64,000 nucleotides of DNA from Marsupella aquatica. Lineage: Eukaryota > Plantae > Marchantiophyta. This document shows, in pieces, positions 9,101-41,893 of the stretch (within the stretch, counting starts at the first letter, position 1; the number at the start of each line of letters is the position of its first letter). The stretch is taken from the NCBI GenBank assembly GCA_973895155.1, contig OZ316892.1, positions 11,782,238 to 11,846,237 on the forward strand, read 5' to 3'. The position numbers were made by a program, and so were the translations under genes. The notes under the pieces are model-generated. The model searched no databases. It was not told the DNA's origin and saw only the letters and a list, made by a program, of their open reading frames with translations.

Positions 9101-10505
9101 CTACCGTTGGAGTTGCGGTCCGGAGAAGAGGCTACCCTATGGAAGGACACCATTGGTGAGGGGTACATTAAAGCGTGGCAGGCCTTGGCCAATTTGAGAA
9201 AGCAGGGGAGCACTAGCACAAGGAGTACCCCGGTAAAGAAGAAGAGAAGTGAAGTGGCACTCACTCCAGTGGAGAGTGATGAGGAGGCCCACTCACGGGG
9301 CTCAAGCCAGGGCACCGTGAGTGAAGAGGAGGAGGATTAGAGTGGTCGTACGGACGTGGTTGTACGGCCCCTGGACTTTCCAACTTTTTTTTGTGAGGGG
9401 TCACTCACGGGCTTGTTGGAAAGAGTTCGCGGAGCTGATTCCAACAAGAGGCGGCGCTCCTCAAACGGAGCCAGGATGAGCAGGTTATGGCCCGGCGAAG
9501 TTGTGTTTACGGGATACGGAAACGGTCATAACTTGGTCGTCCAATGTCCGTTTAGAGAGCGGTTGAGTGATTCGTGATCAGGAGGAGGAGAGCTATCCAG
9601 GGGTGAACTCAGAAGTGCAAGTGGAGGGGCGCCTAGTTTCGGCCATTGTGGGGTTCCTTGCAATTTCACGGTTCACGGAGTAACGTTGGGGCACCGTCGA
9701 AGGCACCGTCGGCCCCATTGTTAGTTTAGGGTTTAGGGTTTTTAGACGCATGTGTGTGCCGCATGGTTTTAGTTTAGGGGTTTCTTAGTGAAGGGTTTAG
9801 CGGCGCTGCTAGGGTAAGCCGCCATCGTTGTGGCCCCGTGAGGGGTGCTTTGGTGTGTTTTTTGGTATTTAGGGGGAGAGCCCCAGAGTTGTAAGGGGGG
9901 AACTCAGCGTAGTACTTGGATGCTTTGGAGTAGCTTTTGTGAGTAGCACACCGATTAGGAGAAGTTCAAGCTAGAGTAGTGAGGTGGAGAACGTAGCACT
10001 TGTCCCCGGGAGGCAGGAGTTGGGCAGACGGTAGGAGGCCGGGTTGCCCTTGCATGTGTTACGAGAAACACCAAGAGATATGGATTTGGCTTGAGGTTCC
10101 AATATTTTGTGTGTCACTTGTGGTTGCTTGTGTTGTCTGTTTTCCTCCCCTAGTGCGTGTGGTCGGTGTCGTTGTGGAAACATTTGCCCTTGTCACTAGT
10201 GTTCAAATCTTATTGTAAATGTTGGTATGCTTGCCCAAGAGAGGAGGGGGGTGGTGACAGCACTCACCCGGTGGGCATGAGTTGTAGATGGTAGGACCAG
10301 TCCCTTGGACTTGATCAAAAACGGAGAGACCAGTCGGTAGACTTGATCAAAAAATACACTTCCGGGAGCGGAATCAAACATACTCATACTTAGGTGTGGA
10401 AATCCTCCAAATAGCGTCCCTCCACGACCCCGTAATACGATACCAACAGTTTAAGCAAGGAAAAGTACGGTTTGCACGTATTAATCGTTGGACAGGCAAG
10501 TGACA
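6107..10505 (+). mobile_element. 4.4 kb TG..CA element (probable giant solo LTR) carrying a coiled-coil ORF, copy 1
   Basis: Starts TGTGAC and ends GTGACA, with 5-bp TSD GGGTG (6102-6106 / 10506-10510). Homologous to 24862-28890 at both ends and across the ORF. No internal LTR pair, PBS, PPT or gag/pol seen. Confidence 0.85.
7487..9340 (+). pseudogene. TE-borne coiled-coil protein of unknown function, one premature stop
   Basis: In frame with the 553-aa ORF at 7679; ATG 7487 aligns with MLDQPEF of copy 2. TGA at 7652-7654 replaces CGA (IFRRIYPK became IFC*IYPK). Confidence 0.8.
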
Positions 10506-11927
10506 GGGTGCCTACTGCAAATTAAAATCTCTGTGCCTATTGCACATTAAAGCAAATGGGTGCCTACTGCACACTCACGCAGAAAGGAAAAATATTTGAT
10601 AACTTGAGGGGGAGATCTCATGAAAGGCTTGGCCCCAAGCAATAGAACCCATGGGATGTGCCTACTGAACAAGTGTATTTTTCGCACCAATCAGTATTTT
10701 ACAATGGAACCATATGAGTTGGAACCATATGGCCAATTCTCAAAAATGAGGAATCTTTGTACACGATTGGTCAGGATGTTCACACATTCACTCACTAATA
10801 TTGGATGACATATCATGACTACTAAATTTGGACATAAAACAGACCTTATCATGATATGGTATCATATGATCATATGAGGTACGGTATCAAGTTGTAAGGT
10901 ACCATAAGGTGAGATATGGCCTGGGAAGGCACGACGAGAGATGGTGTGCTATATCATAATAGGATATCTGTATGATATGGATATGGTATATGTTATGATG
11001 TGACCAAGTTATGCCAACACCCAATCTAGGATTGGACACTCCAAACGGTTCAAAGGCCAAGGATTACAACCCACCACGTATCATCTTCATCCTGAATTAA
11101 TACCTTGCTTTTTTTTCCTTAATCTATGAACATCAAGGAGTATTCATTGCCAGCATGGAACGAGATGCATGATGCAGTCAACTTTGCTAACACAAACCAA
11201 GGAGGATCTTCCACAAGCCCATAGTGTTGACAGGCATTAAGAGACTTTGTACAAATTTCATATACACTATGTATTTACCCACTTAACCTAAAATGGTTCC
11301 ATAACATGTGGTGGTGGCACTCTTTCCCTCAGAAAGAGGTAGGAGGATTTTAATGAGACCACACCAATGGCTACCACAGTAAATACTTAATCTATTAAGG
11401 TTAGATGTTAACCCTAGACTGTGGTTCCCTTATATCCTATAAACAACCAAGGGGGAGTATTATAACCCAAAGTTTAGATTAACATCTATAGTTTAGGGAA
11501 GAGATAGTTACCATAACTACCACCATCTGTATATACCTCTTGGACCTCTAATAGATAGTAGTATTTTTTCCGATGCATTGGTGTATTATTCCATCTCAAG
11601 GCTTCCTACATTATAACAATACTCTAGATCTATTTGAGACATTCTAGCTTATTATTCTTTTCAACATTCAGAACAATACATATCTAACTCTCGATCTAGC
11701 TTGCCAGCTTTTACAACTTATGTCTGATTGTGTTGATGGCTACATCACCCTGTTCAAGAGCCAGTTTCTATCAGTTAGAATTTTCTGGATAGGTGCTCGA
11801 GACAAAGGCATAAGAAAGCACATCAAGTGAGCATATAATTGTCTCATCAATTTGCTTTAACATAAGTCTACAAACTATTTGATTTCATTATGGTCTTCTA
11901 GTCAGACTAAATTTAGGACTAATTAAT

Positions 11928-12271
11928 TGTTGAGCATAGACGACATTTGTAACGGCAAGCCCATGAACCATCCAACGCACAATAGTCGACACAGAGAGAT
12001 ACATGGTTCACCTCCACATGAGGCTACGTCCACGGGAACACACAAGAGCTTTATTGCACTCTAGGCCGACCGGCCATACCAAGCATCCACAGCACAAGCT
12101 CTCCCTATCTCTCAACTAGCTCCGTAACAATGAGCCTAAGTTCCACCAGGGTCTGGCATCAGCCCTGGCTATATGCACAATAGCACTATCGCTAACATTA
12201 GCTAAGTCCTAACCCGAATTAGACTAACTGTGGTTAGCTCATGAGTCACAAGGCTAGAGCAATATCTAACA
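11928..12271 (-). repeat. Copia 3' LTR
   Basis: Direct repeat of 32462-32805 with 12 substitutions by my count, all transitions. PPT adjacent at 12272-12282. Confidence 0.97.
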
Positions 12272-12467: not shown

Positions 12468-14656
12468 CTACAACTGGAAAACCTGCAAAGTAGCACGGTG
12501 TCTTGAGAAACTCTCCAAAGGAATCACTTTGGTAAAGACATCAGCGGGATTGAGCTTTCCATCAATCTTGACTAGCTCAAAAGTTTTATCAGACACTGCT
12601 TGCCTGATAAAATGGTACATGATATCAATGTGCTTCACCCTGCTATCCATCACCTGGTTAGCAGCCAAGTGAAGAGCACTTTGACTATCACAGTTTAGAG
12701 TCAATTTTCCATGCTCTAAATCCATCTCCGCGATCAACTTATCCAACCAAATTGCTTCCTTTGCTGCTTTTGCTGCTGCAACATACTCTACTTTTGTAGT
12801 AGACTGAGAAGTGCACTTCTGCAAGGTAGATTTCCAACTGATACATCCTCCTCCAAGAGTGTATAAAAACCCAGTTATAGTCCTCCTTGTATCCAGACAG
12901 CCTCCATAGTCAGAATCTACATAGCCAACTAACGTTCTATCTGATCTGTTATCAAATAGTAATCCATAGTCCTGTGTACCCTTGAGATACCTGAGAATCC
13001 ATTTCACAACTTCCCAATGTATCTTCCCTCGATTTGACATGAATCTGCTAACCTTGCCCATCGCTAGGGCCAAGTCAGGCCTAGTACAAGTCATCAAATA
13101 CATCAGACTGCCTACTGCCTTCTCATAAGGAATCTTAGCCATTAGACCTTTCTCCACACCATCCGTAGGAGAGAAAGCCGATGATAACTTGAAATGTGAA
13201 GCTAAAGGAATACTCACTGGCTTACAGTTCTCCATGTTGAATCGTGCAAGTACTTTCCTCGCATACTGGCCTTGACTCAAGCACAACTATCCAGTATCAG
13301 AGTTCCTAAAAATCTTCATGCCTAAGATCCTCTTGGCCTTACCAAGATCCTTCATCCTGAATTCAGCACTCAATTTCGCCTTGAGACTGTCAACCTCAGA
13401 TTGATCTTTAGCCACAATCAGCATGTCATCCACATAAATAACCAGAATGATGAAACCAAACACATCATTCTTGACTGATTTTGTATACACACAAGGATCA
13501 TACACCATCCTTGTAAAACCTTGAGCAAGCATGAAAACATCAAACCGCTTGTTCCACTGTCTGGGAGACTACTTCAATCCATATAAGGACTTGAGAAATC
13601 TGCAAACTAAGTTCTCTTGGCCCTTCTTCATAAAGCCTAGTGTCTGTCTCATGAAGACCAACTCTTCCAAGTTGCCATAGAGAAAGGCAGTAACAACATC
13701 CATCTGATCCATCACCAGACCAAAAAACACAACAAGTTGACACAAGATCCGAATTGTGGAATACTTAGCCATCGGTGAAAAGACCTCAATGTTGTAATCC
13801 ACTCCTTTCTCCTGAGTGAATCCCTTGGCAACAAGCCTTGCCTTGTAGATCTTGTCTCCAGCCTCTGAAGGACTGTCCTTCAACTTGTAAATCCACTTGC
13901 TGTCCACCACTTGCTCACCTCTTGGAAGCTCCATCAGCTCCCATGTCTTGTTGTCACTCAAAGATTGCAACTCCCTCTGCATTGCTGCATTCCACTCATG
14001 CTTCTGCTCTGAAGCACAAGCCTCACTGTACGAAGAAGGCTCTTCTTCTTCCAAGATCATCTTCATCAAGTGCAATGTCAATATTATCTAGCTTAGATGA
14101 GTTTGCCCATTGACCATACCTGGTAGGAGCTCTAGTAGAACGACTGGAAGTTCCTCTAGGAGATGACTCAGGCTGATCTGTTGTTGCTGCTGGTTGAATT
14201 TGAGGTACCCCAGCAACAATTTGCTCCTCTTGTTCCATCACAAGAACCAGCTCCAAGCCCGGAGCTTCTCCATCTCTCCTGTCATGAACAACATCATGAC
14301 TAATCTCCCCCTCAACCCGGTCCGGGATGAGAGATTTCCCTTGTCAGTATGGGAGTCTTGAGAACTCTCCCCCTCCTTTGATGATCTGGATTCATTAAAG
14401 GACACATCTCTACTGACAATTAGTTTACAGGTTACTGGATCCCATAACCTATAACCCTTCACACCTTTCTGATAGCCAAGGAAAATGCACTTCTTCGACT
14501 TGGACTCCAGCTTGGTTCAAAGCTGGGAAGGTGTAAGCACATAAACATCACATCCAAAAATCCTCAAATGTGAGTAATCTGCTGGACGCCCGTACCTCAT
14601 TTCAAATGGCGTCTTGAATCCAATAGAACTAGATGAAGAACAATTTACCAAATAAG
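12468..14656 (-). pseudogene. Copia pol 3' part: integrase C-terminus, RT, RNase H (stops and frameshifts)
   Basis: KGYRLWDP..VSRDVSFNE; YKARLVAKGFTQ; QMDVVTAFLYG; YVDDMLI; GYVDSDYGG; CDSQSALHL; NPADVFTK. Split over several ORFs. Confidence 0.95.
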
Positions 14657-14660
14657 CTGC

Positions 14661-15372
14661 TGTCGTGATATATAGTATCGTAGCCATAGTGTATCGAAAA
14701 CATACAAGTCACCGGCAAGGCATATGTGCAAGCTGCTAGCAACCAACATGCATAGAAAAAGTCCAATCACATTCACAAGTGCCAAGAAAAAGCAAATGAA
14801 GTGGTATGTACGTAGTGGAGGTGTAAACCTCTGTATATAAAAGGCGTAAGAGAAACAATTGTACTGAAATCGAATCGAAAACCGGCAGGATGCCAAGATC
14901 GGTCGGGAGCATCTAACGAATCACTGTGTGAATCCCGTGTACGGAACCGACAAGCACTGTCTGAGCTCTGTCAATAGCGATTCAAGAAGAACTAAAAACC
15001 CACAAAGAAAGACATGCCCTAAGCAAGCAAAGTCCTGGCGTCACACTAACAAGCACATTTGCTTCAAGAACGGCCCAGACTTGCTACAAGAACATGTCGC
15101 TAACTCAGGTAGTACACTAGCCCTAACTACATACCTAGCGGGCAGGCGAGGGACATGCCGATGTGCATAAGAGGCACTGTCCCTCGGCATGACAGCTGTC
15201 GTGACATATAGTATCGTAGCCATAGTGTATCGAAAACATACAAGTCACCAGCAAGGCATATGTGCAAGCTGCTAGCAACCAACATGCATAGAAAAAGTCC
15301 AATCACATTCACAAGTGCCAAGAAAAAGCAAATGAAGTGGTATGTACGTAGTGGAGGTGTAAACCTCTGTAT
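14661..15372 (-). repeat. Composite 3' terminal repeat of the Gypsy: A(14661-14836) B(14837-15194) gc A(15197-15372)
   Basis: The two A copies are 176 bp each with 2 differences seen. B (358 bp) recurs at 24288-24645. G7 PPT at 15373-15379. Confidence 0.93.
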
Positions 15373-15411
15373 CCCCCCCAGACCACAGCCAAAAGGAGGG
15401 CTGAAGAAAAT

Positions 15412-18400
15412 TTAGGTAGCACATGGAGCACAAGAAGGGCAAAACCATAACCCTTCTGGCACCTGGGTAAGTTCAGGCCGAAGGCAGAAAAGATGGTACC
15501 CTCCATTGCAATTGTCACACAGCAGCATCTGGTCAGCATCATCAATTCGCAAACACACCTTGCAAGGGTAGTCCACAGGTGGAATCCAAGTAGAAGTCAC
15601 AATGGTGGGATCTAGGTTAGGCAGATGACAAGGGGTGCAATTCTTGGCATTGTCAGCAATTGTGCGCCCATCTGCCCCTTGTAACTCTAGCACTCCAGAC
15701 GGTCGAATAGCTTTAACCCTGAGAATAGTACGACTGGTAGAGGTGTCCAGGGTGTCGTTAGCTTGCCGCTGCCAGTACACAAAATCTCCCACATCAAACT
15801 TCCTGACCTTGGGCTGAAAAGTGCCCCCTCGTGTGTGTGCATAACGCAGTGTGTCCCTATGTTGTGCAATGGCCAAATTCTCCATGGCCATGGGCATAAC
15901 CCTCCTGAATAGGGCAGCCCTCTCAGAGATCACATCAGACCAAGTCACAGCTGAATCCAAGTCCACCACCTGAAGCATGTGAGCAGCAATAGCAGAAGGT
16001 GGAACTGGGTGACGACCAAACAACAAGAAGTAGGGAGAAAAGTTAGACAGTGATGCATGTCTGGACATCCTATACCCCATGGCAATGTAGGGTAAGGCCA
16101 GGTCCCAATCCTCCTTGTTTTTGGTGAGGCAGATCTTCCGAAGACCCTTCTTGCATGTCTGAACCATGCGTTCTACCAAGCCATCTGCCTGTGGGTGATC
16201 TCGTGATGTCCGATGATGATCAATGAGGGCCTGATCAAGCAGCTCCTGGAACTCTCCTCTAAACTCTGAGCCCTGATCAGTGAGACATTCTGCACAAGCT
16301 CCAAAACGACTGAGAACTTGTTGCAGGAATGCCTGGCTGGTGCTACGGGAGGTCTTATCCGGCAATGCCACAAGTTCTATCCACTTGGAGAAATGCTCTA
16401 TCATGATCATGATGTAGAGATTACCCCGAGACGTGAGGGGTAATTCTCCAGCCAAATCACATGACCAGCGATAAAACATGCCCTGAATGGGGAGTGGATG
16501 AAGTGTGGGTTGCCGAGATGTGAAAGAAGTCCTCACCCTATCACACTGTTCACACCGGGCAATAACATCTCGAACCTGGCCATGCATGCCTCTCCAATGA
16601 TAATGAGGGACCAAGAGGCTGTAAGTCCTCTTAACGCCAAAATGACCAAGCTCAGAATGTACCTTACGGATAAGGCCAACCCTCTCATGAATGGGTGGAA
16701 CCACCACTTCCCTGTCTGGCAAGCAGCGCACGAGATGATCTCCCTTCCACAAGTAGCGCTTGGACCTTTGCTGAATTTGGTCTCTCTGGGCAGCAGTAAT
16801 ATGTGTGGGGTACTCCCCATGCTGCAAAAATCTCAGAGTTTCGTTGTCCTCCCATATGTCCACCACAGGTTGGTCAACAACATAGCATGGCAGCAAAGCA
16901 AGATAGGTCGATGCATGAAATGTAGGCAGGATGGAAACCTGGTCAAAATCCTGTCGTGCATCTGAGGAATCATCAGAGGCAATCAAAGGGCTGCGGGACA
17001 TAGTGTCAGCATTTTGATGTGTCACACCAGGCCTATAAATTACCTCAAAATTATACTCCTGGAGTATGAGCGCCCAACGAGCAAGCTTGCCAGTAAGCTT
17101 GTCGTTGGTCATCAACCACTTCAAGGGCTGGTGGTCGGTGTAGAGAACAAACCTGGTCCCATAGAGGTAGGGCCTGTAATGTATGACAGCCCACACAACA
17201 GCAAGGCATTCACCCTCATAAGAAGAATAATGACTCTCTGCCTGATTGTTGCTCCTGGATGCATAGGCAATGACGTACTCTTTACCTTCCTCATCATGCT
17301 GGCCCAGAATGGCACCAATCCCAAGGGCACTCCAATCTGTGTGTAGCACAAAGACCTTGCTGAAATCAGGTCTTCTCAGCACCGGGTATTCTGAGAGCTT
17401 CTCCTTCAAAGTGACAAATGCTGCTTCAGCATCTGTACTCCATGTCCAAGTCACATTCTTTTTCAACAAAGAGTACAATGGATGTGCAATGGTACTGAAA
17501 TCTTTGATGTAGATCCGGTAGTAATTGCACAACCCAATAAAGCTCCTAAGAGTGTGAACATCAGTAGGAGTGGGCATTTCCAGGATGGATACCACTTTGG
17601 CCCAGTGAGCCATGGTTCCATTTGGAAGAATGCGGTGCCCAAGGTATACTACTGATCTGACAGCAAATTCACACTTCTTGGGGTGTATTTTCAGGTTCAC
17701 CTTCTTAAGCCTCATGAATAGCTCCTCAAGGTCAAGTAGATGTTGGTCAAATCCTTTGCTGTGGACCAACACATCATCAATGTAGCATTTCATAAACTCA
17801 GCACCTTGAAGAACCTGGTCCATGACTCTTTGAAAGAATATGGGCGCATTCTTCAAGCCAAATGGCATCACCAACCACTCCCATAGTTGGTTACTACCAT
17901 GGAAAGCTGTTTTCTTGCGATCCTTTGCAAGCAGCAAAATCTGGTTAAAGCCTTGCCTTAGATCCACAAGAGTGAAGATGTCTGAGTCTCCAATGCTGTC
18001 AAATAGCTCCTCTGGCCGTGGCATGGGGTACCTGTCCTGGGGTGTGACCAGGTTCAGTGGCCTGTAGTCCCCACACATGCGCTTCTCTGTCCACAATCCA
18101 CTGGAATCCTTCTTTGCTGGCATCACTGTAGCTGCTGCAAAATCTGATGTAGATGGCTGAATAAGACCAGCTTCATATAACTCTTGGCACCTCTCATCCA
18201 CTAGCTGCCACTCATGCTTACTCAAATAATGTCTCCGCCTGAAGATAGGTGTTTCATCAGCCAACTCAATGGAGAACTGCATGGTCTTGCACTTACCCAC
18301 GTCCTTCATAGAGAAAGCAAACACATTCTCATGCTTGAGGAGCAAATTCAGCAGCTGGTCCTTCTGTCTTTTACTCAGGTGGTTGCCCATGATAAATGTG

Positions 18401-19380
18401 TAGTTGGCAACACTAGGAATAGGACCTGATGTACTCGTACTTGAAGAGCCAGAAGTGCCAGCCTCTCCACTGTCCAAGCTGCTAGCATGCTGCTGATAAG
18501 GTGATGAGGCCTCTCCAAGGCCTGTTGTACCTGCTGATCCGAAGTGGTCCACACCATGAAACTCAGAAATAATGTTAGCCGCATTACAAGGGACCTCCTC
18601 CCCCCCAACACTTGGACTGAAGTGGTGAGTGTTGGACAGAGGTAAGTGCACCTGGTCTGGATGCCATGCAGCAGCACTATGGAGTGGTAAGGCTGGAGCT
18701 CCTAATGCTGGAGGAATGTACATCTGAAAAAGGATGCAAGTGACCAGAAGCCAAGTGAGAGCATTGAGATCCATTACCCTGCCAAGTAAAGCATTCCTGG
18801 CTAGCCTGGTGATTTTGGTGTGACCTGTAGTACCGGGTTGGAAGCCCATAGCCCGTTCTCTCTCCTCAGGACTAGGTTCATCCCATGTACCGGTAGAATG
18901 TCGATAAACCAGACCAGGACCATCACCCTGAAAAGCATGTGCACCTAGAAAGGACACAAATGTAGGCCAAGCAGCACGGGGTTGTCCAAAGGTATTGGCT
19001 GGATACCAAGGTGCTGGCTCTTGCCGTGTAACTGGTTGGCAAGAACTGTCAGGATCCAAAATCTGGTCCACTGTAAGGTTAGTGTCCTTGGATGTGTGGT
19101 GAAGAGCCATCTCCAGCAAGGAAGGTGGTGCAAGGTTAGTCCAAAAGTTACGAAGACGATGTGCATAAGAACCACAGTGCACTGCATCAATGAGAAGGGG
19201 TGGTCCCAAGTAGTGCTGGACCACACTGAAATCCTCTTTGACCTGTGGACGCTGGTCAAACTGAGATGGAGTATTTATTCTCAATGATATAACCAACAGC
19301 AGGATAAAGGGATTGAGCCCAGGTGAGAATCTGAACCAATGCTGTGAAAAGGCCAGAACGAGAATCATGCTGTCCAGCAC
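15412..19380 (-). CDS. Gypsy pol: DNMT C-terminal half, RT, RNase H, integrase, C-terminal PHD finger
   Basis: Uninterrupted 1322-codon frame. RT: RMCGDYRPLN, MPFGLKNAP, YIDD. RNase H: LHTDWS, YTDHQPL. Integrase: HSELGH..CEQC, CDLAG/TDQGSEF/GLVERM. PHD: CKVC..LLCDNCNGGYHLFCL..WFCPSC. Confidence 0.93.
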   Translation of the reverse strand: MLDSMILVLAFSQHWFRFSPGLNPFILLLVISLRINTPSQFDQRPQVKEDFSVVQHYLGPPLLIDAVHCGSYAHRLRNFWTNLAPPSLLEMALHHTSKDTNLTVDQILDPDSSCQPVTRQEPAPWYPANTFGQPRAAWPTFVSFLGAHAFQGDGPGLVYRHSTGTWDEPSPEERERAMGFQPGTTGHTKITRLARNALLGRVMDLNALTWLLVTCILFQMYIPPALGAPALPLHSAAAWHPDQVHLPLSNTHHFSPSVGGEEVPCNAANIISEFHGVDHFGSAGTTGLGEASSPYQQHASSLDSGEAGTSGSSSTSTSGPIPSVANYTFIMGNHLSKRQKDQLLNLLLKHENVFAFSMKDVGKCKTMQFSIELADETPIFRRRHYLSKHEWQLVDERCQELYEAGLIQPSTSDFAAATVMPAKKDSSGLWTEKRMCGDYRPLNLVTPQDRYPMPRPEELFDSIGDSDIFTLVDLRQGFNQILLLAKDRKKTAFHGSNQLWEWLVMPFGLKNAPIFFQRVMDQVLQGAEFMKCYIDDVLVHSKGFDQHLLDLEELFMRLKKVNLKIHPKKCEFAVRSVVYLGHRILPNGTMAHWAKVVSILEMPTPTDVHTLRSFIGLCNYYRIYIKDFSTIAHPLYSLLKKNVTWTWSTDAEAAFVTLKEKLSEYPVLRRPDFSKVFVLHTDWSALGIGAILGQHDEEGKEYVIAYASRSNNQAESHYSSYEGECLAVVWAVIHYRPYLYGTRFVLYTDHQPLKWLMTNDKLTGKLARWALILQEYNFEVIYRPGVTHQNADTMSRSPLIASDDSSDARQDFDQVSILPTFHASTYLALLPCYVVDQPVVDIWEDNETLRFLQHGEYPTHITAAQRDQIQQRSKRYLWKGDHLVRCLPDREVVVPPIHERVGLIRKVHSELGHFGVKRTYSLLVPHYHWRGMHGQVRDVIARCEQCDRVRTSFTSRQPTLHPLPIQGMFYRWSCDLAGELPLTSRGNLYIMIMIEHFSKWIELVALPDKTSRSTSQAFLQQVLSRFGACAECLTDQGSEFRGEFQELLDQALIDHHRTSRDHPQADGLVERMVQTCKKGLRKICLTKNKEDWDLALPYIAMGYRMSRHASLSNFSPYFLLFGRHPVPPSAIAAHMLQVVDLDSAVTWSDVISERAALFRRVMPMAMENLAIAQHRDTLRYAHTRGGTFQPKVRKFDVGDFVYWQRQANDTLDTSTSRTILRVKAIRPSGVLELQGADGRTIADNAKNCTPCHLPNLDPTIVTSTWIPPVDYPCKVCLRIDDADQMLLCDNCNGGYHLFCLRPELTQVPEGLWFCPSCAPCAT

Positions 19381-19891
19381 CGTGACCAGCAGCTGAAAAC
19401 CCTTGGCATTCCCAACCAGCTATGATCAAATCAAGGGAGCCAAGAAGGGTTAAGTGCCAGTGCTGGACAAGCTGGATATCTGGAGGGAAGAAAGAAAATG
19501 CAGACTTCCATGCACTATGTGGTAACTGCTGGGGAAATCGCTCTGAAAATTCCAGCAGACGGGATTCAGCCACTTGCCTTGCACCTGGATCAATATCCAC
19601 ATAGATGTACTGCTTCACCACCATGCTAGACTTTAGGAGAGCTTCCAGGCCTGTAGAAATGCCACCAAAAAGCTCAAGCAATGTAAGGCCATCTGAAGGA
19701 GGAGTCCATGTAACTGGTGCGCTCAAGATTGGGGCTATTGGTTGGCCATTGTGCTGCCCTAGATCCTCAAATTTGCGCAATGCAGCCACCAAAGGTCTAT
19801 GGGCTGCTTGGAGCCGTTGTACCACCTCTGGTTGATGATCCACGTGGCTGGAAAGTGCTACTATACGTGCAGCAGCATGTGCAATAGCCAC
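18740..19891 (-). pseudogene. C5 cytosine DNA methyltransferase domain (DNMT3/DRM-like motifs) inside pol
   Basis: Motif I LELFGGIS, II YVDID, IV AGWECQGFS, VI IIEN, VIII AHRLRNFWTNL, IX ERERAMGF, X RNALLGRVM. A 4-bp duplication (tatt) near 19272-19279 causes the frameshift. Confidence 0.88.
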
Positions 19892-19918
19892 CTCATCATC
19901 ATCCTCCTCAATCCAATC

Positions 19919-20950
19919 CTACAATGGGTGGTTGACATAGGTAGCTGTGTGCACTGCTTTCAACACACAGTGGTGAGCCATAGGTGTATGGGCACCATGC
20001 AAATCAAGTGGAATGTAGCCCAAGTGTGAGCCATCCGTATGCCAATCAACTCTGTAGTATGCATGCTCATGCCAATTGTCAATGGTAAAACCTGGTGGGA
20101 ACAAAGCCTCCTGGCCAATGAGCACATCATACGTAGTGGCATTGGTAACCAAACATCTGACTGGGAAATGCAATTCCTGATCTGTACCTCCATTAAAAGT
20201 GAGAGTGAGTAAAGTAGAACTCTCACCCAGCACATCCTCCACAGTGCCACTAGCAGTCCGAATGTGCCACCTGGATTGCTGTAAATGATCAGTCAACAGT
20301 CCCATCTTCTTGGCAAACTGAATGCCCACTATCACTGGTTGAGCACCTGTGTCTAGCATGACCACCTGAGGAGTGTGACCCTCCAACTTGACTGCTGAAT
20401 TCCTGTTGTCAACAATGGCAATGGTGGTGGAAACTAAAGTCCTGTCACTAGGCACCACTTTTGGCAAATGATGAGGTACCTTGTGAAGGGAGTTAGTGTC
20501 CACGGTCTTTCCACTCAACAACATAGCCAGGAAAGATGGAGCAACATGACCAGAATCAAGTGTAGCTCTGGTCACACAATCAGCAGCAATCGGTACTGGG
20601 GCAGCCAAACCAGTGGAAACATGTAAAGGAGAAGAAAAAGGTCCAGTATGTACATGAGATTGGACCTCCAAAACCGGTGTCACAGGGGCTGATGAAGAAT
20701 GCAGTGAGCCCTCTAGCGCTCTGATGACAGCTCTAGCATCCAGCTGTAAATCATGGCAACTGAAAAGTGGAGTTGTAAGAATCCTTTGTGCCATACCGGA
20801 GGTGAAATGCTCAAGCAGCTCAGGAGAAACAACTCCCTGTGAAATGTCAGCAGCACCTGGTGGTGGAATGGATGTAGCTGCAGCTCCCTCCCCCCTCGCC
20901 AACAAGGTGCGCTCTTCAGCAAGTGTGCGTGGCTGAAAAGATTGGGGCAT
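19919..20950 (-). pseudogene. Gypsy aspartic protease region
   Basis: VMLDTGAQ catalytic motif and YDVLIG. A single in-frame TAG (19919-19921) separates it from the DNMT frame. Confidence 0.85.
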
Positions 20951-22592
20951 GACAGCTGGCTCTAGTCAGAGGACCGGCAGCAAGACCAGCAGCCTGTACA
21001 ATGCGGCGTGTGGGAGCAATACAGGAGGCAGCACTGGCCTGCTGGTAAGCAAAATAGGAAGGGCAGAATGAATCTGAAAATTCTGCTGTAAGGCCAGGCT
21101 GTGGAGCAGAGGACAGCACACACTCACCCATATGAGCACCAAATGGTAAGCCATAGAAAGAGTGGGGTAGAGGTGCTGAACTGTCAGCGGTGCCTGGGCC
21201 AGGGATGGGTTGCACGTGACCAGCCGATTGAGAAGGACCAACAGAGGCAGTGGACTTGCCTTTGATGTTGGCAAGTTGGGCACGTAAGGACTCAACTTCA
21301 TGAGTCAAAGACTGGAGTTGAGTTGCCTGTGCGTTGTGAGCCTCCTTCTGAGCTGGTTGCTTCTGTGGCTGCTTGGGCAATTTGTTAGCATCGGGTGCTT
21401 TGCCACTGGAAGGAGGAGCAGTGGATGCAGTAGGAGCCCTCCTAGCTGGTGGGGGAGTGGAAACAGGAGTAGGATGAGTGGCCTGCTGTCATAGCTGCTT
21501 CCTCTCAGGGAATTTGGCAAAATAGACTGCCTCCAAGTGGCTCACTTTTCCGCAAAAATCACAAGATAGGTCCTCAGCAACAATATCACATTCATTAGCC
21601 TTGTGATTAGGGTTACCACAGTAGTTGCAAGATGACAGCATGAAAGCAGCATGTGCTGGCTTGGTCTTGGAACCATACTGTGGCACACGGGGAGGAGTGA
21701 CCAGTGTAGGGGCAGCAGCCTGGTACCTGGATCGCGGTGGACGTGCAATATTGGCCTCATAATGTGCATGGGCCAACTCAAGTTTCTCAGCAGTGTCATA
21801 GACATTGAGCAAGGTGTACCTGTCTCCAAACTCTGAGAATACTTGTTGCAACACTTGCGAATGGAGAGCTGGTGTGCCCTCCAATGCGCGAAGATAGCGA
21901 TGAGCAGCTTCCAGGTCAGTGATGCTCTGGGTGTCCTCCTTCAGCTTGAGAAGTCGGCGATACATCATCTTCAATGTTTCATCGCGCTGCCTCACAAAGG
22001 TGGCCAACTGCATGATTTTATCAGCACTCTTGATTGGGAATTCTAATTCAAGAACCTGAAAAAACTCAGCCACTGGATCAACAAAGGCAAGAGAATCAAT
22101 GGTGGGAGAAATGCCTGATGTAGCCTGTGCCAAGACAGTGGGAGTAACTGGCGCAGTGGTGGGAACTGGAGTAGGAGGGGAAGTGGCAGGAGCAACAGCA
22201 TGGGCTGCAATGGCATTCTGTAAGGCCAATTGTGAGGCTGCCGCAATTGCATTGGCATAGGTAGGGTTAGGCAACTGTGTGACAGCAAGCAGCCGTTGAG
22301 AATGCTGCTCATACACATCCAAAGCCTCATGGTGCACATACCTGGCTAGCTGCTTAAATGCAAATGCATTTGTGAAATTGTTGCCATACTTCAACTCCAA
22401 TTCGTAAACGACAGTGTAGAAAGTGGATTTGAACTCACGTAAAGAGACAGTGCCTGGCCGCCCGCTGAAGCGCTCAATGCGGCCAGATGAGTGGCTGGCA
22501 TCCATGCTGTATGTCGGTGAAGCAGGAACAACCACTGATGCAGAAGGGGTAAATGGCAATGAAGTGATAGCAGGCTTGGGAGTAGTGGTCAA
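20916..22592 (-). pseudogene. Gypsy gag with two CCHC-type knuckles; in-frame TGA at 21489-21491
   Basis: ERFSGRPG capsid-like start; CNYCGNPNHKANEC and CDFCGKVSHLEAVY. ORFs 21489..22592 and 20916..21380 share a frame. Confidence 0.8.
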
Positions 22593-23269
22593 GCGACCGC
22601 CAAATGGAGCAGAAGGATTGCGTGGTGTGGGTGCTGCTGCTGTCTGTGGACGTCGTCAAAATTGCCGAGACTCCAATGAAATTGGCACCAATGGTCGTGG
22701 ATCACTTCGTAAATGGTACCTGGGTGTCGGTGGCGATGTGCTGCTACCTCCTGGCACGTCGGCTGACATGCTGCATGCTCACCTGGGTGCCAATGGGAAA
22801 GAAACTGACAAGAAAAAGAAATGGCAGCCCCAAGGCTAGGAAATAAACAGTGCGAGGCAGAAATGTGTCGAATGTGTAAACACACAGAAAAACCATCGGC
22901 AAAGAAAAGACCCTTAAAAACTCCAATTGGACTGGTGTTGTGCTTGCTGGATTGACTGTCTGATGAATATGCCAGGCCCTCAGCTTTATGCAGATGACAC
23001 GTGGCGGCAGCAAAGAAATCCAGAAAAATGGGCCCTTAAAAATGTAAACCTGGGCCCCCCTTAAGTGTATACATCGGCCTTTTCAAATGTATAAACATGG
23101 GGCCCGGTTAAGTGTATACATCGGGCCCCGATGTGGACCCGGGAACTGGCAGCAGGTCGATCGTCGCACGGCGAAAAAGTGAGAAAGGCCGAAAAAGGGG
23201 AAAATAGCCGAGGCAAGCTCGCAGGTGGCCGGAAAGAGGAGAAAAGACGTCGCGAGGTAGGGCAAAAAA

Positions 23270-23700
23270 AACGGGGCCCTCTTAATGGCATGAGCCCTCC
23301 ATAGGGCTTCGTGCCCCACCTTATGTGCTCCCGAAAAGGGGCTATGAACTCCCCCCTCCTCTCCTTCAATGCAATTTGGGCCTCGTGCCCTGGCAAAAGA
23401 CTCCAGTGTGAGGAGTCAAGTGTACTCCTCCCCCTCCCTGCTTTAATTACTCCATAGGGCCTCGTGCCCTGGTGACAGTATGCCCGAAGGCAAGGGAGTC
23501 GAGTGTACTCCCCTCCCCTGCTTCAATGTTGCTTAGGGCCTTGTGCCCTCTCCTGGCACCCTCGCTCCCCCTCCTTCTTTACTGCAGCATAGGGCTTCGC
23601 GCCCTCTCCTGGCACACTCGCGCTGCCTTGTGCTCGGCTCCCCTTCCCCCCATGCTTTAATTCTCCATAGGGCTTTGTGCCCTCTGTCCTCTCGCTTGCT
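23270..23700. repeat. Degenerate tandem repeats in the Gypsy 5' leader
   Basis: Recurring (cc)atagggcttcgtgccc and ctcccctccc..cttcaat motifs, about 6-7 copies. Confidence 0.7.
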
Positions 23701-24287
23701 TATGGCAGGGCAAAAAGAAAGGGAGTCGAGGCAGGAAAAATGGGCGAGAAAATGCCGAAAAAGGGAAGAAACATCCCGGATTGAGGAGGGACTACGGCCG
23801 GTAAAGGGAGATACAGCCGAGGCAAGGGCATGGTGCCCTATGCACGGCCTGTGCAGGGCGTCGCGAGGCAACAAAACGGGCTCAACGGCAGCCGTGGCCG
23901 AAAAGTGGCAACAAACACAAAACGGCCCCAAAAGCAGTCGAGGCAACGGTTGATGCAATGTCGGCAGCAGCAGGTTGTGGCCGGAATGTGAAGGGCCAAC
24001 GGCCTACAAACCACGGGTTGCAGTCGGGAGGTGGTCGTGCGGCAAACGGCAGTGACAGTCGGAAGCAGCAAAGGAGTCGCGGATGCAACCGGAAAAGGAA
24101 CTCCTGACCCCTTCGGAAGCATGGATATGTGTATACACTTAAGTATACACATAACCACATAAACCCATAACTTTCATTCCGTCGCTCCAATGTTCGTCAA
24201 AGAAATTGCAATGGCTTCACCAAAAATTGTCAAAATCGCCACGAGCAATCTTCTTCCCGTCACCGCTAACTCGACAGTTCTTCTTGA

Positions 24288-24645
24288 ATAAAAGGCGTAA
24301 GAGAAACAATTGTACTGAAATTGAATCGAAAACCGGCAAGATACCAAGATCGGCCGGGAGCATCTAACGAATCACTGTGTGAATCCCGTGTATGGAACCG
24401 ACGAGCACTGTCTGAGCTCTGTCAACAGCGATTCAAGAAGAACTGAAAACCCACAAAGAAAGACATGCCCTAAGCAAGCAAAGTCCTGGCGTCACACTAA
24501 CAAGCACATTTGCTTCAAGAACGGCCCAGACTTGCTACAAGAACATGTCGCTAACTCAGGTAGTACACTAACCCTAACTACATACCTAGGGGGTAGGCGA
24601 GGGACATGCCGATGTGCATAAGAGGCACTGTCCCTCGGCATGACA
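24288..24645 (-). repeat. 5' terminal repeat of the Gypsy (segment B only)
   Basis: 358-bp direct repeat of 14837-15194 with about 11 substitutions; no A segment next to it. Confidence 0.93.
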
Positions 24646-24649
24646 CTGC

Positions 24650-24856
24650 AGTGTTGACAGCTTCAGCCCAAAACTCATGTGGTAAGCATGATTGACTCAA
24701 CATACTCCTCGAGCGGTCCAATAGTGTTCGGTTGAGTCTCTCAAAAATACCATTCTGCTAAGGAGTATAACTTGTTGTGAGATGGTAGGTAATCCCCTGC
24801 TCCTTATAATACGTTCCAAATTCCCCGGAACTATATTCACCGCCGTTATCCGATCA
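24650..24856 (-). pseudogene. Copia integrase core fragment between the two nested insertions
   Basis: L*SDNGGEY ... FWAEAVNTA. It rejoins AYLVN at 14656 once the Gypsy and one TSD copy are removed. Confidence 0.9.
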
Positions 24857-25972
24857 AAGATTGTCACTTGCCTCTCCAACGGTTAATACGTGCAAACCGC
24901 ACTTTTCTTCGCTTAAACCGTTGGTATCGTATTACGGGGTCGTGGAGGGACGCTATTTGGATTCTTTTCACACCAGGATGAGTATTTTGGTTTCCGCTCC
25001 CGGAAATGTAGGTTTTGATCAAGTCTACCGACTACCCTCACCCCACAGCTTTTGATCAAGTCCTGCCGACTACCCCACTACACCTTCACTCGGAGTCACC
25101 CAAAGAGTGCTGTCACCACCCCTACTCACAAGGCCGACTCAAACCAAGCAAGTTTCTTCAAATCATAGAACGGGAGAACACAATTCGGAAAGCGAAAAAG
25201 GGAGAAGGAACACACAACAAAAGCCCATCAAGTCAAATGTACAGATCCATATCTCTTGGGAAAAACGATACACATTGCATGAGTAACCCGGCCTCCTGCC
25301 GTCTACTCAACTCCTGCCTCTCCGGACAATGAGTATGGCTCCCCCTCACTACTCTGAACACGCTTTCAAACTCCTCAGGCTCCACTCTATCCCTCCTTGC
25401 TAACTTCACACTGAGTCCCCCTAACTACTTCGGGGCTATCCCCCTAAATACTGAAAAATCACACCAAAGCACCCCTCACAGGGTCACAACGGTGGCGGCT
25501 ACCCTAGCGGCGCCGCTAAAACCTTGCACTAAGAGAAATCCTTAAACTGAAGAGGAGCATGCGGCACACACATGCTGCTAAAACCCTAAACCCAAAACAA
25601 GGGGGCCGACGGTGCCTTCGACGGCGCCCCAACAGTACACGTGAACCCTGAAAGTGAGAGGCACCCCAAAATGGCCGAAACTAGGTGCCCTTCCAAGTGC
25701 ACACCTGAGCTCACCCCTGGATAGCTCTTCTTTTCCTGCTTCCGAATCACTAAGTCGCTCCCTCAACGGACTTCAGACGCCTGAGTTATGGCCGTTTCCG
25801 TACCGCAAAAACATAAGTTCTCCAGGCCATAACTTGCTCATCCTGGCTCCGTTTGAGGAGCGCCGCCTCTTGTTGGAATCAGCTCCGCGAGCTCATCCCA
25901 ACAAGCCCATGAGTGACCCCCCACTAAAATGTTGGAAATCTGGAGGCCGTACACCCACGTCCGTACGCCTAT

Positions 25973-27829
25973 CTAATCCTCCTCTTCTTCTTCGCTCTCG
26001 GTGCCCGGACTTGTGCCCCGTGAGTGGTCCTCCTCCTCATCACTCACGGGAGTGAGTGCCACCGTACTTTTCTTCTTCTTCGACGGAGTACTCTTAGTGC
26101 TGCTGCTCCCGCGCTTCCTCAAAGCAGCCAAGGCCTGCCACGCCTTGATGTACCCCTCACCAATTGTGTCCTTCCAGAGGGTAGCCTCTTCTCCGGACCG
26201 CAACTCCAACGGTAGAACTTGCCCCGTGGCCATGGGAGTCCCGGGGGTGACAGACCTGGGTGGCATCCCCGTACTGACCTGAGCCTCCCGTAACGATTTC
26301 CGTACCTCCCGGAGCTTCTTCTCCAAGCTCTTACTCTTCTCCTGACTCTTCTTGGCTCCATCCAACAAGGGTCCATACTTCCCACTAACCTCCTTCACCA
26401 CCATCTCGATAGCTTGGGAGATCACATCCGGGGAAAGTGTGGAGCCAGGTGTGCCGGGACTCTTCCGTTTCCCTAGACTCAGGGCCTCACTTCTCTTCGC
26501 TCGTGTCTCAAAGGCTGCCACCTGACTCCGTAGTGCTCCCACCTGGTTCCTCCACTCCATCACTTCTCCAGAATTTTGCTTCTCTTTGGCCAATGCTTGC
26601 CTCAACGCTCCTACTTCTTCTGCTTCCTTGGCCTTGGTGGACAAAGCTCCCTTCAAGTTGGTGATCTCTACGTGAGCTGCATTGATGTGCCTGACCTTCT
26701 CATGAATGGTCTGCTCCTTGGTCTTGATCACCTCCTTCAGTGACAGGATGCTCTGCTCTAACGTCTCTACTTTGACTGTGGCGTGCTTGAGAGACTCCCT
26801 CAATGCGTGGACTAGCTTGAGTCCCTCGTGGACTCCCTCTCTGAAATCCCGTAGCTCTGCCAAGTAAACATCCGGAATGTTGTATTCCAGAGGCTGTTTC
26901 GGATCTCCCACGAGTGATTCAAGCCACTCCAATGTGCAATCATCCTCCTGGTTCTCTTCTTCTCTATTATCCTCCCCACCAGCAGACAATGATTCCTCCG
27001 TGAGCTTCCCTAAAACGGTAGTGGCAATACTCCGGATCTCCGTGGTGAGAGATGATCCCGTGTCTTCATGCCCCGGAGAACCAATCAACCCTTCTGCCCT
27101 GGCCAATACAAATGACCCCATCAAATGTACAGCCCCACCTGGTTTCACACTCCCGGGCTCAGCGGCCAATAGCTTCTTCAATCCGTAGCACCACCATCCG
27201 TACACATGGGCTGGGTAGTTCTTGATGTCCATAGCTACCACGAAATGCTCCTCATTCAGCACTCCGGATTGCACGTTGCCAAGAACCCGTTGATGCACCT
27301 TGGCCAGGAAGCCCTTATACTCAACATCCTTGACAGCAGAAAGAGGGATGGCGGTGGTGGAGGTAGGATTGGTCACCCAAGTGGCCACCATTTTCAACGT
27401 GAGTTCTCCCCTGATATTCCGAGGTGTGAATGAGAATTTCTGATTCTCAAGAAACAATAGCTTAGCCAACTCCACATGGGGCACTACACGTTTGAGACAT
27501 TCAAAGTAGATTCCCTCCGTTCGGAACTCCATCCCGGCCTCAATGTCCCAGCTCTTCCCTGAAGGGATGGTAATCTCCACCTTCATGAATTCTGTAAGCC
27601 CGGTGGCTTGGAAAATGTTCCGACAATCCTCCATCACCTTGGTGGAGGTCTTGGGATAAATTCGACGAAAAATCTTCCTACCCACCGGTGAGGAACCCGC
27701 TGCCAATCCCGTGCTCATCATAACTTCTCTCTCTTCCCTTTCCCGTGTAATCCGAGTCTCCACGTAGTCACGGTAAGCAGCCTTGTATCTCCGAATGCGT
27801 GACGCACTAAACTCTGGTTGATCTAGCAT
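25973..27829 (-). CDS. TE-borne 618-aa protein: N-terminal globular region, acidic linker, long coiled coil, basic NLS-like tracts
   Basis: Intact ORF, highly similar to 7487-9340; GKRKSP and KKKKS motifs. No gag/pol motif recognised. Confidence 0.8.
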   Translation of the reverse strand: MLDQPEFSASRIRRYKAAYRDYVETRITREREEREVMMSTGLAAGSSPVGRKIFRRIYPKTSTKVMEDCRNIFQATGLTEFMKVEITIPSGKSWDIEAGMEFRTEGIYFECLKRVVPHVELAKLLFLENQKFSFTPRNIRGELTLKMVATWVTNPTSTTAIPLSAVKDVEYKGFLAKVHQRVLGNVQSGVLNEEHFVVAMDIKNYPAHVYGWWCYGLKKLLAAEPGSVKPGGAVHLMGSFVLARAEGLIGSPGHEDTGSSLTTEIRSIATTVLGKLTEESLSAGGEDNREEENQEDDCTLEWLESLVGDPKQPLEYNIPDVYLAELRDFREGVHEGLKLVHALRESLKHATVKVETLEQSILSLKEVIKTKEQTIHEKVRHINAAHVEITNLKGALSTKAKEAEEVGALRQALAKEKQNSGEVMEWRNQVGALRSQVAAFETRAKRSEALSLGKRKSPGTPGSTLSPDVISQAIEMVVKEVSGKYGPLLDGAKKSQEKSKSLEKKLREVRKSLREAQVSTGMPPRSVTPGTPMATGQVLPLELRSGEEATLWKDTIGEGYIKAWQALAALRKRGSSSTKSTPSKKKKSTVALTPVSDEEEDHSRGTSPGTESEEEEED

Positions 27830-28253
27830 CCATGCATCCCGAAATCAATTTCTCAATCACCAATCCCGTCACCCGTGGCAATGTCAATTCCCTGGCCCGA
27901 AACAGCCCCCGTAGCCCGATCACTTAAATTCTCTCAATTTCCCGTCACTACTCCGTGCGGCCGCCACTAATGCCTGGAAGAATGACGCCAGCAAGCCCCA
28001 CTAATCCACCATGAAAGAGAGAGCTTCAAAAATAATTAGAATCTGGAGAGAGCTTCCGGCAAGAGAGAGAAGAACCCCGTTTTTGCTTTCGGCAATGAGA
28101 GGGTCGTGCAAAAGGAAGAGGGAAAGAAAAAGGAAGGAAAAAAAAATAGAACCGAAAAAACTCCTGGCGCCTTCGCCATGCGCCCCGGCCCATTTCTCGG
28201 GCCTTACCCTTGCGTCCTCCTGCGCGCGGCCCTATGCAGGGCGCGCGGCCATT

Positions 28254-28530
28254 CCTCCCGGCTCGCGGGAGGCCCTTCAACTCCCCCCCGCTCGCGTGAT
28301 CCTCCCAGCTCGCGGGAGGCCCTTTAACTCCCCCCCGCTCGCGTGATCCTCCCAGCTCGCGGGAGGCCCTTTAACTCCCCCCCCCCGCTCGCTTGCGCTC
28401 CTTCAGCTCGCGGAGCCTCATTAATTGCCCGGGCACGCAGCCCTATGGGCTCGCGAGGCAGCCCCTTCAGCTCGCGGAGCCCCATTAATCGCCCGGGCAC
28501 GCAGCCCTATGGGCTCGCGAGGCAGCCCCT
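28254..28530. repeat. GC-rich tandem repeats (47 bp x3 and 64 bp x2) in the 4 kb element
   Basis: cctccc.gctcgcgggaggccc at 28254, 28301 and 28348; ttaat.gcccgggcacgcagccctatgggc at 28421 and 28485. Confidence 0.85.
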
Positions 28531-28895
28531 CTTTCTCTCGGACGGCCACTAATGGGACTCGCCCTCCTGAGGAGGGATTTATTTAAAAAAACCCCCCCCT
28601 CTCCTGACTTTGCAATGGGGGTCTCAACAATAGCTCTTGAAGCAAAACGGTAAGTCCTATGGGGCTGGTCCTGGCTAGTTTCAAGGTCCCAAAATATTTG
28701 CCCACTTAGGTCGCCGCAAATCTTAGAACTATTATGAGAGAAAGAATATAAAGTCACCTGGGGCATCATCAACCTATAATGACGGAATTAACTAAAAATT
28801 AAAAAATGGCTTATTTACATTGACTATTAACAAGGTATCGGCCTTTGCAACCAGTTATGTGTGACTTCCCGTGACGGGGTACCCGTCACAAAGAT

Positions 28896-32459: not shown

Positions 32460-32461
32460 CT

Positions 32462-32805
32462 TGTTGAGCATAGACGACATTCGTAACGACAAGCCCATGA
32501 ACCATCCAACGCACAATAATCAACACAGAGAGATACGTGGTTCACCTCCACATGAGGCTATGTCCACGGGAACACACAAGAGCTTTATTGCACTCTAGGC
32601 CGACCGGCCATACCAAGCATCCACAGCACAAGCTCTCCCTATCTCTCAACTAGCTCCGTAACAATGAGCCTAAGTTTCACCAGGGTCTGGCATCAGCCCT
32701 GGCTATATGCACAACAGCACTACCGCTAACATTAGCTAAGTCCTAACCCGAATTAAACTAATTGTGGTTAGCTCATGAGTCACAAGACTAGAGCAATATC
32801 TAACA
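32462..32805 (-). repeat. Copia 5' LTR
   Basis: TG..CA termini, followed on the minus strand by the PBS; TSD TTAAT at 32806-32810. Confidence 0.97.
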
Positions 32806-41400: not shown

Positions 41401-41893
41401 TCTGAAATAGGAACACGTTAGCGGCCCTTAAGACAATGCTGTCCAGACCCATCTACTAATTGGGCGCCGGACAAAAAAAGCTCTCACCTCTTTCTTTGAT
41501 GATCTTCAGCATATAGCGTCGGCAGTCTTCTCCTGACAACTGCATGATTTCCGCGTCAGAAAGTTCCTCGACTCTTTTCTCGTCTGCAACAACGCTTCGC
41601 TCCGTCTCTTCCCCTTTTCCTACCTTGGAAGTCCACGGCGTGGCTTGAGCCAAAGAAAAGGTAAGACGACTACTCATATGGGAGCTATCCGTCCCAAGTC
41701 CGAGCCGTGGCAGTGAGGCATCATGTTCATCGTGCCCTGCAGATCCCCTTACAGAATCTGGTAGAGCCAGAAGAGAACCGGTGGTCTTCACTGACCTCTC
41801 TCTCTCCTTCTCCGCTTTCATCTCATTCTCTCTATCGCGAATACTTGTTTCCAAGCCCAGAAAATCAACCGCTACGACAGGTGCCCTCGCCAT
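38460..41893 (-). CDS. JAZ: JAZ/TIFY jasmonate-signalling repressor, 7 coding exons, about 570 aa
   Basis: Exons 41893-41488, 40705-40494, 40230-39959, 39680-39578, 39397-39145, 39031-38974, 38868-38460; all GT-AG and phase-compatible (1713 nt). N-terminal DFLGL; ZIM QLTIFYSGVVNVYD..ADKAQAIMLLA; Jas ELPQARKASLARFLEKRKDRVRGKAPY. Confidence 0.93.

Follow-up and report, generated by a model that had tools for sequence, protein, structure and literature searches.

A Gypsy-type retrotransposon with a conserved DNMT3-like domain in the genome of the liverwort Marsupella aquatica

Introduction

Is a DNA cytosine methyltransferase that sits inside the polyprotein of a land-plant retrotransposon an accident of one copy, or a working part of the element? 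The question is raised by a stretch of 64,000 nucleotides from the liverwort Marsupella aquatica (assembly GCA_973895155.1, contig OZ316892.1, positions 11,782,238 to 11,846,237), hereafter called the window, whose minus strand carries a Gypsy-type element at 14661-24645 with the order gag, protease (PR), DNA methyltransferase (DNMT), reverse transcriptase (RT), RNase H (RH), integrase (INT) and PHD finger. A first-pass annotation, made from the DNA letters alone, had drawn attention to this fusion and had proposed that its lineage persisted into land plants and that the packaged enzyme may methylate its own complementary DNA (cDNA). The observation is confirmed, and the interpretation is partly supported. 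The element belongs to a young and abundant Gypsy family, of which it is a recently broken copy, and we regard it as on balance probable that its conserved DNMT3-like domain is an active enzyme that would methylate new element DNA in the particle.

The methyltransferase domain

The DNMT domain (18736-19690, minus strand) displays its motifs I to X in linear order between positions 19678 and 18769: motif I (19678-19649), II (19603-19589), III (19483-19472), IV (19423-19394), V (19363-19346), VI (19288-19277), VIII (19188-19135), IX (18864-18841) and X (18798-18769). The linear arrangement read in the first-pass annotation is borne out, with motifs III and V added to it. A DRM-type plant methyltransferase was considered as a candidate and rejected, since the motifs run from I to X rather than being circularly permuted. 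Even in its unrepaired state, the N-terminal half is matched by PF00145 (DNA_methylase) above the cut-off (E 2.3e-6, 27.7 bits, cut-off 22); the C-terminal half alone gives no PF00145 match. This copy retains the catalytic Cys of motif IV, the Glu of motif VI, the Arg-x-Arg of motif VIII and the glycine loop of motif I. Motif IV reads GWECQGFS, just as had been annotated, with a Glu in place of the Pro that precedes the Cys.

The closest solved relative found with the single sequence is DNMT3A, and a profile comparison likewise places DNMT3A (E 5e-26) ahead of DRM-type enzymes (1e-15 to 1e-12) and HhaI (1e-9). When a predicted model of the relative P0008 was compared by Foldseek, DNMT3A, DNMT3B or DNMT3C filled every listed top row (best E 1.9e-13), a result tempered by the moderate confidence of the model (mean predicted local distance difference test score, pLDDT, of 59.8, with the catalytic core at ~80-90). 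In the open relatives P0003, P0010 and P0192, the reading frame passes through a DNMT domain that is non-rearranged, intronless and located inside Pol. It is nearly certain that the domain is a family-wide feature, and that it is DNMT3-like by profile and predicted fold.

Relatives of the element and selection on the domain

Protein searches with the natural N- and C-terminal halves of the domain as queries returned 21 and 18 relatives, respectively. Among these, three proteins from chromosome-scale contigs place the fusion in land plants, as the first-pass annotation had supposed: one of Calypogeia fissa (74% over the N-half; contig of 66.6 Mb) and two of Sphagnum magellanicum (contigs of 18 and 32 Mb). 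In a taxonomic look-up, the nearest DNMT cluster was assigned to Streptophyta, with no taxa listed for the type that has its DNMT between RNase H and integrase. The Calypogeia liverwort protein is the nearest named relative of the N-half, a position without firm tree support, and the RT of the element is 85% identical to a Sphagnum-type protein. No Klebsormidium-named sequence was present among the relatives from either half-query search or from a search around the relative P0058.

A metagenome scan, for which loci were picked by two patterns, one of them including the WEC motif, confirmed 563 of 599 candidate stretches; 80 loci were kept, and their proteins resemble the Sphagnum ones. The order gag-PR-DNMT-RT-RH-INT-PHD is found in these loci wherever they are covered, bar local losses and rearrangements. 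Whether WEC is fixed across copies had been raised as a question in the first-pass annotation; Glu-Cys is present in 80/80 loci and in all 55 that match the pattern without WEC. Locus L004:541-10948 contains two family elements, one apparently nested within the other, and in locus L064:7132-10398 a 3' part is inverted and connected within the DNMT.

A scan of 1.84 billion representatives gave 1337 proteins at E 0.001, with 205 (50%-identity clusters) below 1e-30, and the best 150 of the 1337 were examined, from which 137 domains were aligned. The catalytic Cys and the motif VI Glu are each retained in 137/137 of these domains, the motif VIII arginines in 132/137 and 130/137, and the second Gly of motif I in 119 of the 120 rows that have a residue there. 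The residue before the Cys is Glu in 85 relatives, Pro in 41, Ser in 5, Asp in 4 and another residue in 2, where the share of Glu is probably inflated because the relatives were found with a WEC query. The change from Pro to Glu is the commonest state among these 137 relatives, and is peculiar neither to this copy nor to land plants; forms with EC and PC are interspersed on both the DNMT tree and the RT-RNase H tree. These trees are made up of DNMT-bearing relatives only, and P0016, a spliced and partial model, was excluded from the DNMT tree.

In both trees, relatives with the PR-DNMT-RT layout stand together on one side of a branch that is well supported, with values in the Shimodaira-Hasegawa-like approximate likelihood ratio test (SH-aLRT) of 99 for RT-RNase H (43 rows) and 98 for DNMT (106 rows). 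Among distant relatives (P0040-P0199), the DNMT lies between RNase H and integrase in 84 of the 106 placeable proteins and between protease and RT in 22. Each layout forms its own group in the DNMT tree and in the RT tree alike, so the domain either moved or was captured twice. Among full-length relatives scanned, an integrase was found in 17/20 and a PHD match in 16/20. In a viral collection, no relative was confirmed by close alignment; wide alignment, run on 4 of the 64 parts, gave only distant C5 methylases (25-44% identity), and none of the 80 loci kept from it has an RT or an integrase.

The ratio of nonsynonymous to synonymous substitution rates (dN/dS), whose estimation the first-pass annotation had proposed, indicates that the DNMT domain is under purifying selection near the level of protease and integrase. 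Between this copy and the related loci, dN/dS amounts to 0.148 for the N-half (80 loci) and 0.089 for the C-half (61/72 finite), next to 0.055 for RT, 0.067 for integrase, 0.097 for protease, 0.159 for gag and 0.31 for the linker; with dS near saturation these values are rough, which weakens them as support for a working enzyme. Among the decayed loci themselves, the ratio ranges from 0.34 to 0.64 across all domains.

There is next to no probability that this copy alone captured the domain from a host gene, or that the domain is a neutral passenger. The broken state of this copy would fit such an origin, and so would the finding that the whole domain is open in only 1 of the 69 metagenome loci covering it; however, decay has struck every domain of the metagenome loci, where the region from PR to RT is open in 0/45. 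The first-pass annotation had considered that other family copies might lack the domain; all 80 kept loci carry it, and its presence there in a conserved order, the purifying selection and the wide protein family with its 205 clusters refute a one-off capture.

Breaks and age of the copy in the window

A 1335-residue frame of the element encodes the C-terminal half of the DNMT, followed by RT, RNase H, integrase and PHD finger, with the protease frame upstream. Between protease and PHD finger the frame is interrupted only twice, as had been annotated. The first break, ~240 bases ahead of motif I in the linker between PR and DNMT, is a premature TAG stop (19919-19921); the second is a tandem duplication of 4 bases (19272-19279) where motif VI ends. 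The first-pass annotation left unmentioned that gag is also broken twice (a stop at 21489-21491 and a frame change near 20960), and that the repeats are split. The catalytic motifs of protease, RT, RNase H and integrase are all intact in this copy.

Contigs from four public sequencing runs were aligned on the element. Another letter is found at 19921 in 118,327/119,393, 20,667/20,667, 2,936/2,973 and 99.5/99.5 of depth in the four runs, and the four extra bases are missing in 7,045/18,359, 7,358/21,021, 1,207/1,207 and 18.5/18.5 of depth. Hence, in 4/4 runs the other copies largely lack the stop and the duplication, the stop being confined to this copy or a few. In run X3, near-identical internal contigs have a depth of 1,200-1,700, while contigs entering single flanks have one of 12-19; depth is no copy count, and this difference points to many close copies. 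The repeats of the element, introduced below, differ at 11 of 358 bases (A1 and A2) and at 2 of 176 (B1 and B2). Twelve of these 13 differences are transitions and 9 lie in a CG or CHG context; their small number and their nature suggest a recent insertion that is likely methylated by the host.

Possible role of the enzyme

Judged from its sequence, the DNMT domain is probably catalytically active. In the mechanism that we envision, the protease would release the DNMT along with the other enzymes, and the DNMT would methylate newly made element DNA inside the particle. The cDNA of the element itself is favoured as the target because the DNMT is placed in Pol and because dinoflagellate DIRS enzymes are active, SymbioDIRS-Dnmt3 being able to methylate CG de novo in yeast (PMC5890265). 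That this cDNA is the main substrate has, in our estimation, an even chance.

Several observations weigh against this reading. The Pro before the catalytic Cys is replaced; the KnitGypsy-Dnmt3 domain of the alga Klebsormidium nitens gave no methylation in yeast, an outcome called inconclusive by its authors, and human DNMT3B was likewise silent there (PMC5890265). In addition, CG in the coding region of the element stands at 0.26 of expectation and in the Copia segment of the same window at 0.24. CG depletion was accordingly rejected as a trace of self-methylation, the Copia segment being equally depleted.

The lack of any special CG depletion in the element would also fit an active enzyme whose main target lies elsewhere, either host chromatin at or near the insertion, reached via the PHD-bearing integrase complex, or other DNA of the cell. 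A PHD finger in most of the full-length relatives scanned would place the complex on chromatin; the domain, however, lies inside Pol, would be made only together with the particle proteins, and would be most concentrated beside the cDNA, so that we consider such a target unlikely. We deem it rather unlikely, too, that a weak or dead enzyme has been kept as a DNA-binding or base-flipping module, with Glu in place of Pro disabling methyl transfer. Substitutions of this Pro in M.EcoRII reportedly slow methyl transfer, which speaks for an impaired enzyme. The Pro before the Cys is described as a general rule (bioRxiv 2020.03.09.983320), and the inactivity of KnitGypsy-Dnmt3 in yeast points in the same direction (PMC5890265). 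These arguments have to be set against the retention of the Cys, the motif VI Glu and the motif VIII Arg across proteins that are just 32-45% identical to the query, the near-invariance of the second Gly of motif I, and the alternation of EC and PC among close branches. Dead methyltransferases usually lose such catalytic residues.

Architecture, priming and integration

We return to the favoured reading of a functional element family and to the layout in which its DNMT is embedded. The element lies on the minus strand. In place of an ordinary pair of long terminal repeats (LTRs), the element has split, direct repeats in the arrangement A1-coding-B1-A2-B2. Its 5' end is TG and its 3' end CA, and a 4-bp target-site duplication flanks it, with the same four bases at 24646-24649 on the 5' side and at 14657-14660 on the 3' side; empty-site joints spanning the element were found in 4/4 of the public runs. 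Repeat A1 (24288-24645, 358 bp) starts with TG, is 97% identical to A2 and contains the predicted promoter and RNA start. A predicted RNA 5' end and self-primer (24433-24445), with a 15-nt exact complement at the A1 boundary, is paired in the folded RNA, and the predicted self-priming primer-binding site adjoins A1 at 24276-24287, the same place as in related loci. The gag region (20916-22505) has no Pfam match and is 69% identical to the N-terminus of the open relative P0010. It is followed by the aspartic protease (20102-20392; PF13975, E 2.4e-7), the DNMT, the RT with an intact YxDD (17620-18264; PF00078, E 3e-28), the RNase H (17053-17442; PF17917, E 3.8e-38), the DDE integrase with a zinc finger and intact D-D-35-E spacing (16000-16719; PF17921, PF00665) and, at the C-terminus of the integrase, the PHD finger (15430-15564; PF00628, E 2.5e-11). 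A polypurine tract, a run of G (15373-15379), adjoins repeat B1 (15197-15372, 176 bp), which ends with CA; such a run precedes B in 26/26 of the related loci shown. Repeat comparison further delineated A2 (14837-15194) and B2 (14661-14836), the latter providing the CA of the 3' end. Between B1 and A2 lies a palindromic junction (15191-15200) of CA, a 2-bp spacer (15195-15196) and TG, the predicted integrase site.

No tyrosine recombinase match was found by Pfam in the five long frames of the element, and no Chromo match in the element, a PHD finger being present instead. Membership among DIRS, PAT or Ngaro elements was rejected on the basis of the DDE integrase, the missing recombinase match and the 4-bp target duplication. 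Telomere-like TAGGGT words occur inside repeat A, both in the window (24288-24645) and in the related locus L011:5690-5981.

The self-priming site is a prediction that derives from a duplex between a stretch in A1 and the site after A1, with 15/15 pairs in this copy. In 20/32 related loci the duplex has 11-12 of 12 pairs, and shuffled sequences reach 11 in 1/32; a TATA box lies 33-35 nt upstream in 26/32. At two positions of the duplex, this family and the related loci have different bases on both sides. As an ordinary folding energy was obtained for the 5' RNA region (z -0.24), only the specific duplex counts for self-priming. The purine tract before B1 and the self-priming site after A1 together lead to a predicted linear DNA whose repeat is B-spacer-A.

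The two ends of the element are exactly the two halves of the internal B1-A2 palindrome, and contigs with unrelated flanks stop exactly at 15194 and 15197 in 4/4 runs; this correspondence suggests that the integrase cuts the internal site. The B1-A2 spacer measures 2 bp in 17/17 junctions, and is GC in 7, the others being mostly transitions thereof. An exact 4-bp target duplication is present in 7 of the 10 loci having both ends, two of which represent the same insertion, and a B-A-B 3' end was found in 15/26 related loci. The short A-coding-B forms (8/26 loci) could be taken for integrated circles with one repeat. They were rejected as evidence for this because L069 and L071 have the same flanks as the full forms L053 and L075; assembly collapse or B-B recombination explains the short forms.

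In the cycle that we propose, the RNA would start inside A1 and prime itself on the site after A1 in the manner of Tf1, the plus strand would start at the purine tract before B1, and the product would be a linear DNA with B-spacer-A as its true repeat. Joining of the linear ends would generate the A2|B2 junction, the DDE integrase would cut the CA-spacer-TG palindrome so that the element inserts as A-coding-B-A-B, and the PHD finger would recognize histones at the target. From the sequence features described above, integration via the internal palindrome seems reasonably probable to us, and foamy virus integrase is known to be able to cleave the palindromic LTR-LTR junction of circles (PMC1180852).

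Three findings sit badly with this cycle. This copy lacks a TATA box at the place seen in related loci, and no indel at the A2|B2 junction was detected in the Marsupella element family among the matches listed (variants of at least 1%). Moreover, the second expected product, with B before the 5' A, occurs in 0/32 loci (~27 distinct insertions). The joined circle would contain two equal palindromes, yet the alternative product is missing; the simple symmetric circle model is thus wrong or incomplete, and presumably either one palindrome is blocked or the ends are rebuilt differently.

The latter is the essence of an alternative that concerns the termini only: the A2|B2 junction would be inherited through the RNA, and the ends would be rebuilt by copying the internal B-A junction, with no end-joined circle. 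We view it as possible but doubtful. It has likewise been proposed for split-repeat tyrosine-recombinase elements, it dispenses with a choice between two equal sites, in agreement with the missing alternative permutations, and it fits the absence of listed junction indels. Against it stands the B-spacer-A repeat predicted by the purine tract, which lies before B1 rather than A2, together with the self-priming site after A1; furthermore, of 15 A2|B2 junctions in related loci, 5 show differences of 1-2 bases. If instead integration via the internal palindrome is retained, the unexplained lack of alternative products motivates a speculation, in our opinion an improbable one, that the DNMT marks the first-made integrase palindrome so that the integrase cuts the last-made one only; DNMT and split repeats would then be one device.

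Genomic surroundings

The element is the innermost part of a three-level nest at 11927-32805, in which a Copia element holds a second repeat that in turn holds the DNMT element. The Copia LTRs (11927-12271 and 32461-32805) are 96.5% alike. The interrupted second repeat (24646-28890 and 14340-14660) has a further, inverted copy at 6107-10505 and very deep coverage; its 623-aa frame (25973-27844, minus strand) has no Pfam match above threshold. A plant-like host gene at 56831-60508 (minus strand), with one likely intron, matches Aminotran_5 (E 1.9e-6) and resembles what we take to be the plant molybdenum-cofactor-sulfurase-like pyridoxal phosphate (PLP) proteins. The region upstream of it (60826-61711) is duplicated ~19 kb away at 41826-42704 with ~90% identity. 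The window also contains degenerate tandem arrays with units of 40-70 bases (34450-35251 and 43497-46146) and an inverted repeat at 1111-1351 that is related to 45803-46003.

Significance and comparison with known systems

According to a review, land plants such as tracheophytes lack methylase-encoding transposons (PMC6338049), and no paper on Gypsy-DNMT3 elements in bryophytes was found in the literature searched, which omits most subscription papers and Repbase. With a young and abundant family of this kind, a plant genome that already has a silencing system would also carry many additional genes for de novo methyltransferases, and such a family offers material for asking what a transposon gains from methylating DNA. 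It further shows that a catalytic loop with Glu-Cys occurs naturally in a large enzyme family, and that a Gypsy integrase likely acts on an internal site. If the speculation on palindrome marking were true, methylation would be a step of the replication cycle that chooses where the circle opens, in a large and still-spreading land-plant lineage.

The closest precedent is KnitGypsy-Dnmt3 of Klebsormidium nitens, which has Gypsy domains but repeats of the DIRS type, and whose Pol includes a DNMT3-related domain (de Mendoza et al. 2018, PMC5890265). The first-pass annotation had invoked this precedent, which holds and is strengthened by the shared A-coding-B-A-B repeats with Gypsy domains; also alike are the intronless, non-rearranged DNMT3-related domain within Gypsy Pol and the purifying selection acting upon it. 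KnitGypsy-Dnmt3 differs by its algal host, whereas the named relatives of the present element are found in a liverwort and a moss, and the present family is young and abundant, while Klebsormidium has 33 DNMT genes in all. As far as it was available, the text of that paper is silent on how the algal element primes or integrates. SymbioDIRS-Dnmt3 of Symbiodinium resembles the present element in its DNMT3 within Pol and in its A-coding-B-A-B repeats (PMC5890265), but is set apart by a tyrosine recombinase, a DIRS-type RT and an independent capture, in contrast to the DDE integrase and 4-bp target duplication found here. On split repeats in Gypsy elements, the available parts of PMC8557442 and PMC2774666 contain nothing.

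Tf1/Sushi elements and the plant Tcn1 chromoviruses share the Gypsy domain order and self-priming without a tRNA primer, which is predicted here (PMC6317226, PMC7175516); they have ordinary LTRs and mostly a chromodomain, whereas the present element has a PHD finger, split repeats and a DNMT. DAM-LTR/EpiLTR elements likewise carry a methyltransferase in a Gypsy-like Pol, some together with a histone reader, but theirs is either an adenine methyltransferase or, accompanied by a chromodomain, a cytosine enzyme related to DNMT4 (bioRxiv 10.64898/2026.05.21.726589). The same preprint sets them apart from 'streptophyte Gypsy-DNMT3', for which its main text names no land plants. Foamy virus integrase offers a parallel for the cleavage of an internal palindromic LTR-LTR junction (PMC1180852); there, the junction arises from the linear ends, whereas here the palindrome is a permanent internal feature of the element, whose linear ends should, by prediction, lie elsewhere. 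The Gypsy-DNMT3 kind of element has been known since 2018, and it is here extended to land plants, with a testable replication model added. What is new is the young family, the predicted self-priming site, the polypurine tract and the palindromic junction that matches the ends of the element.

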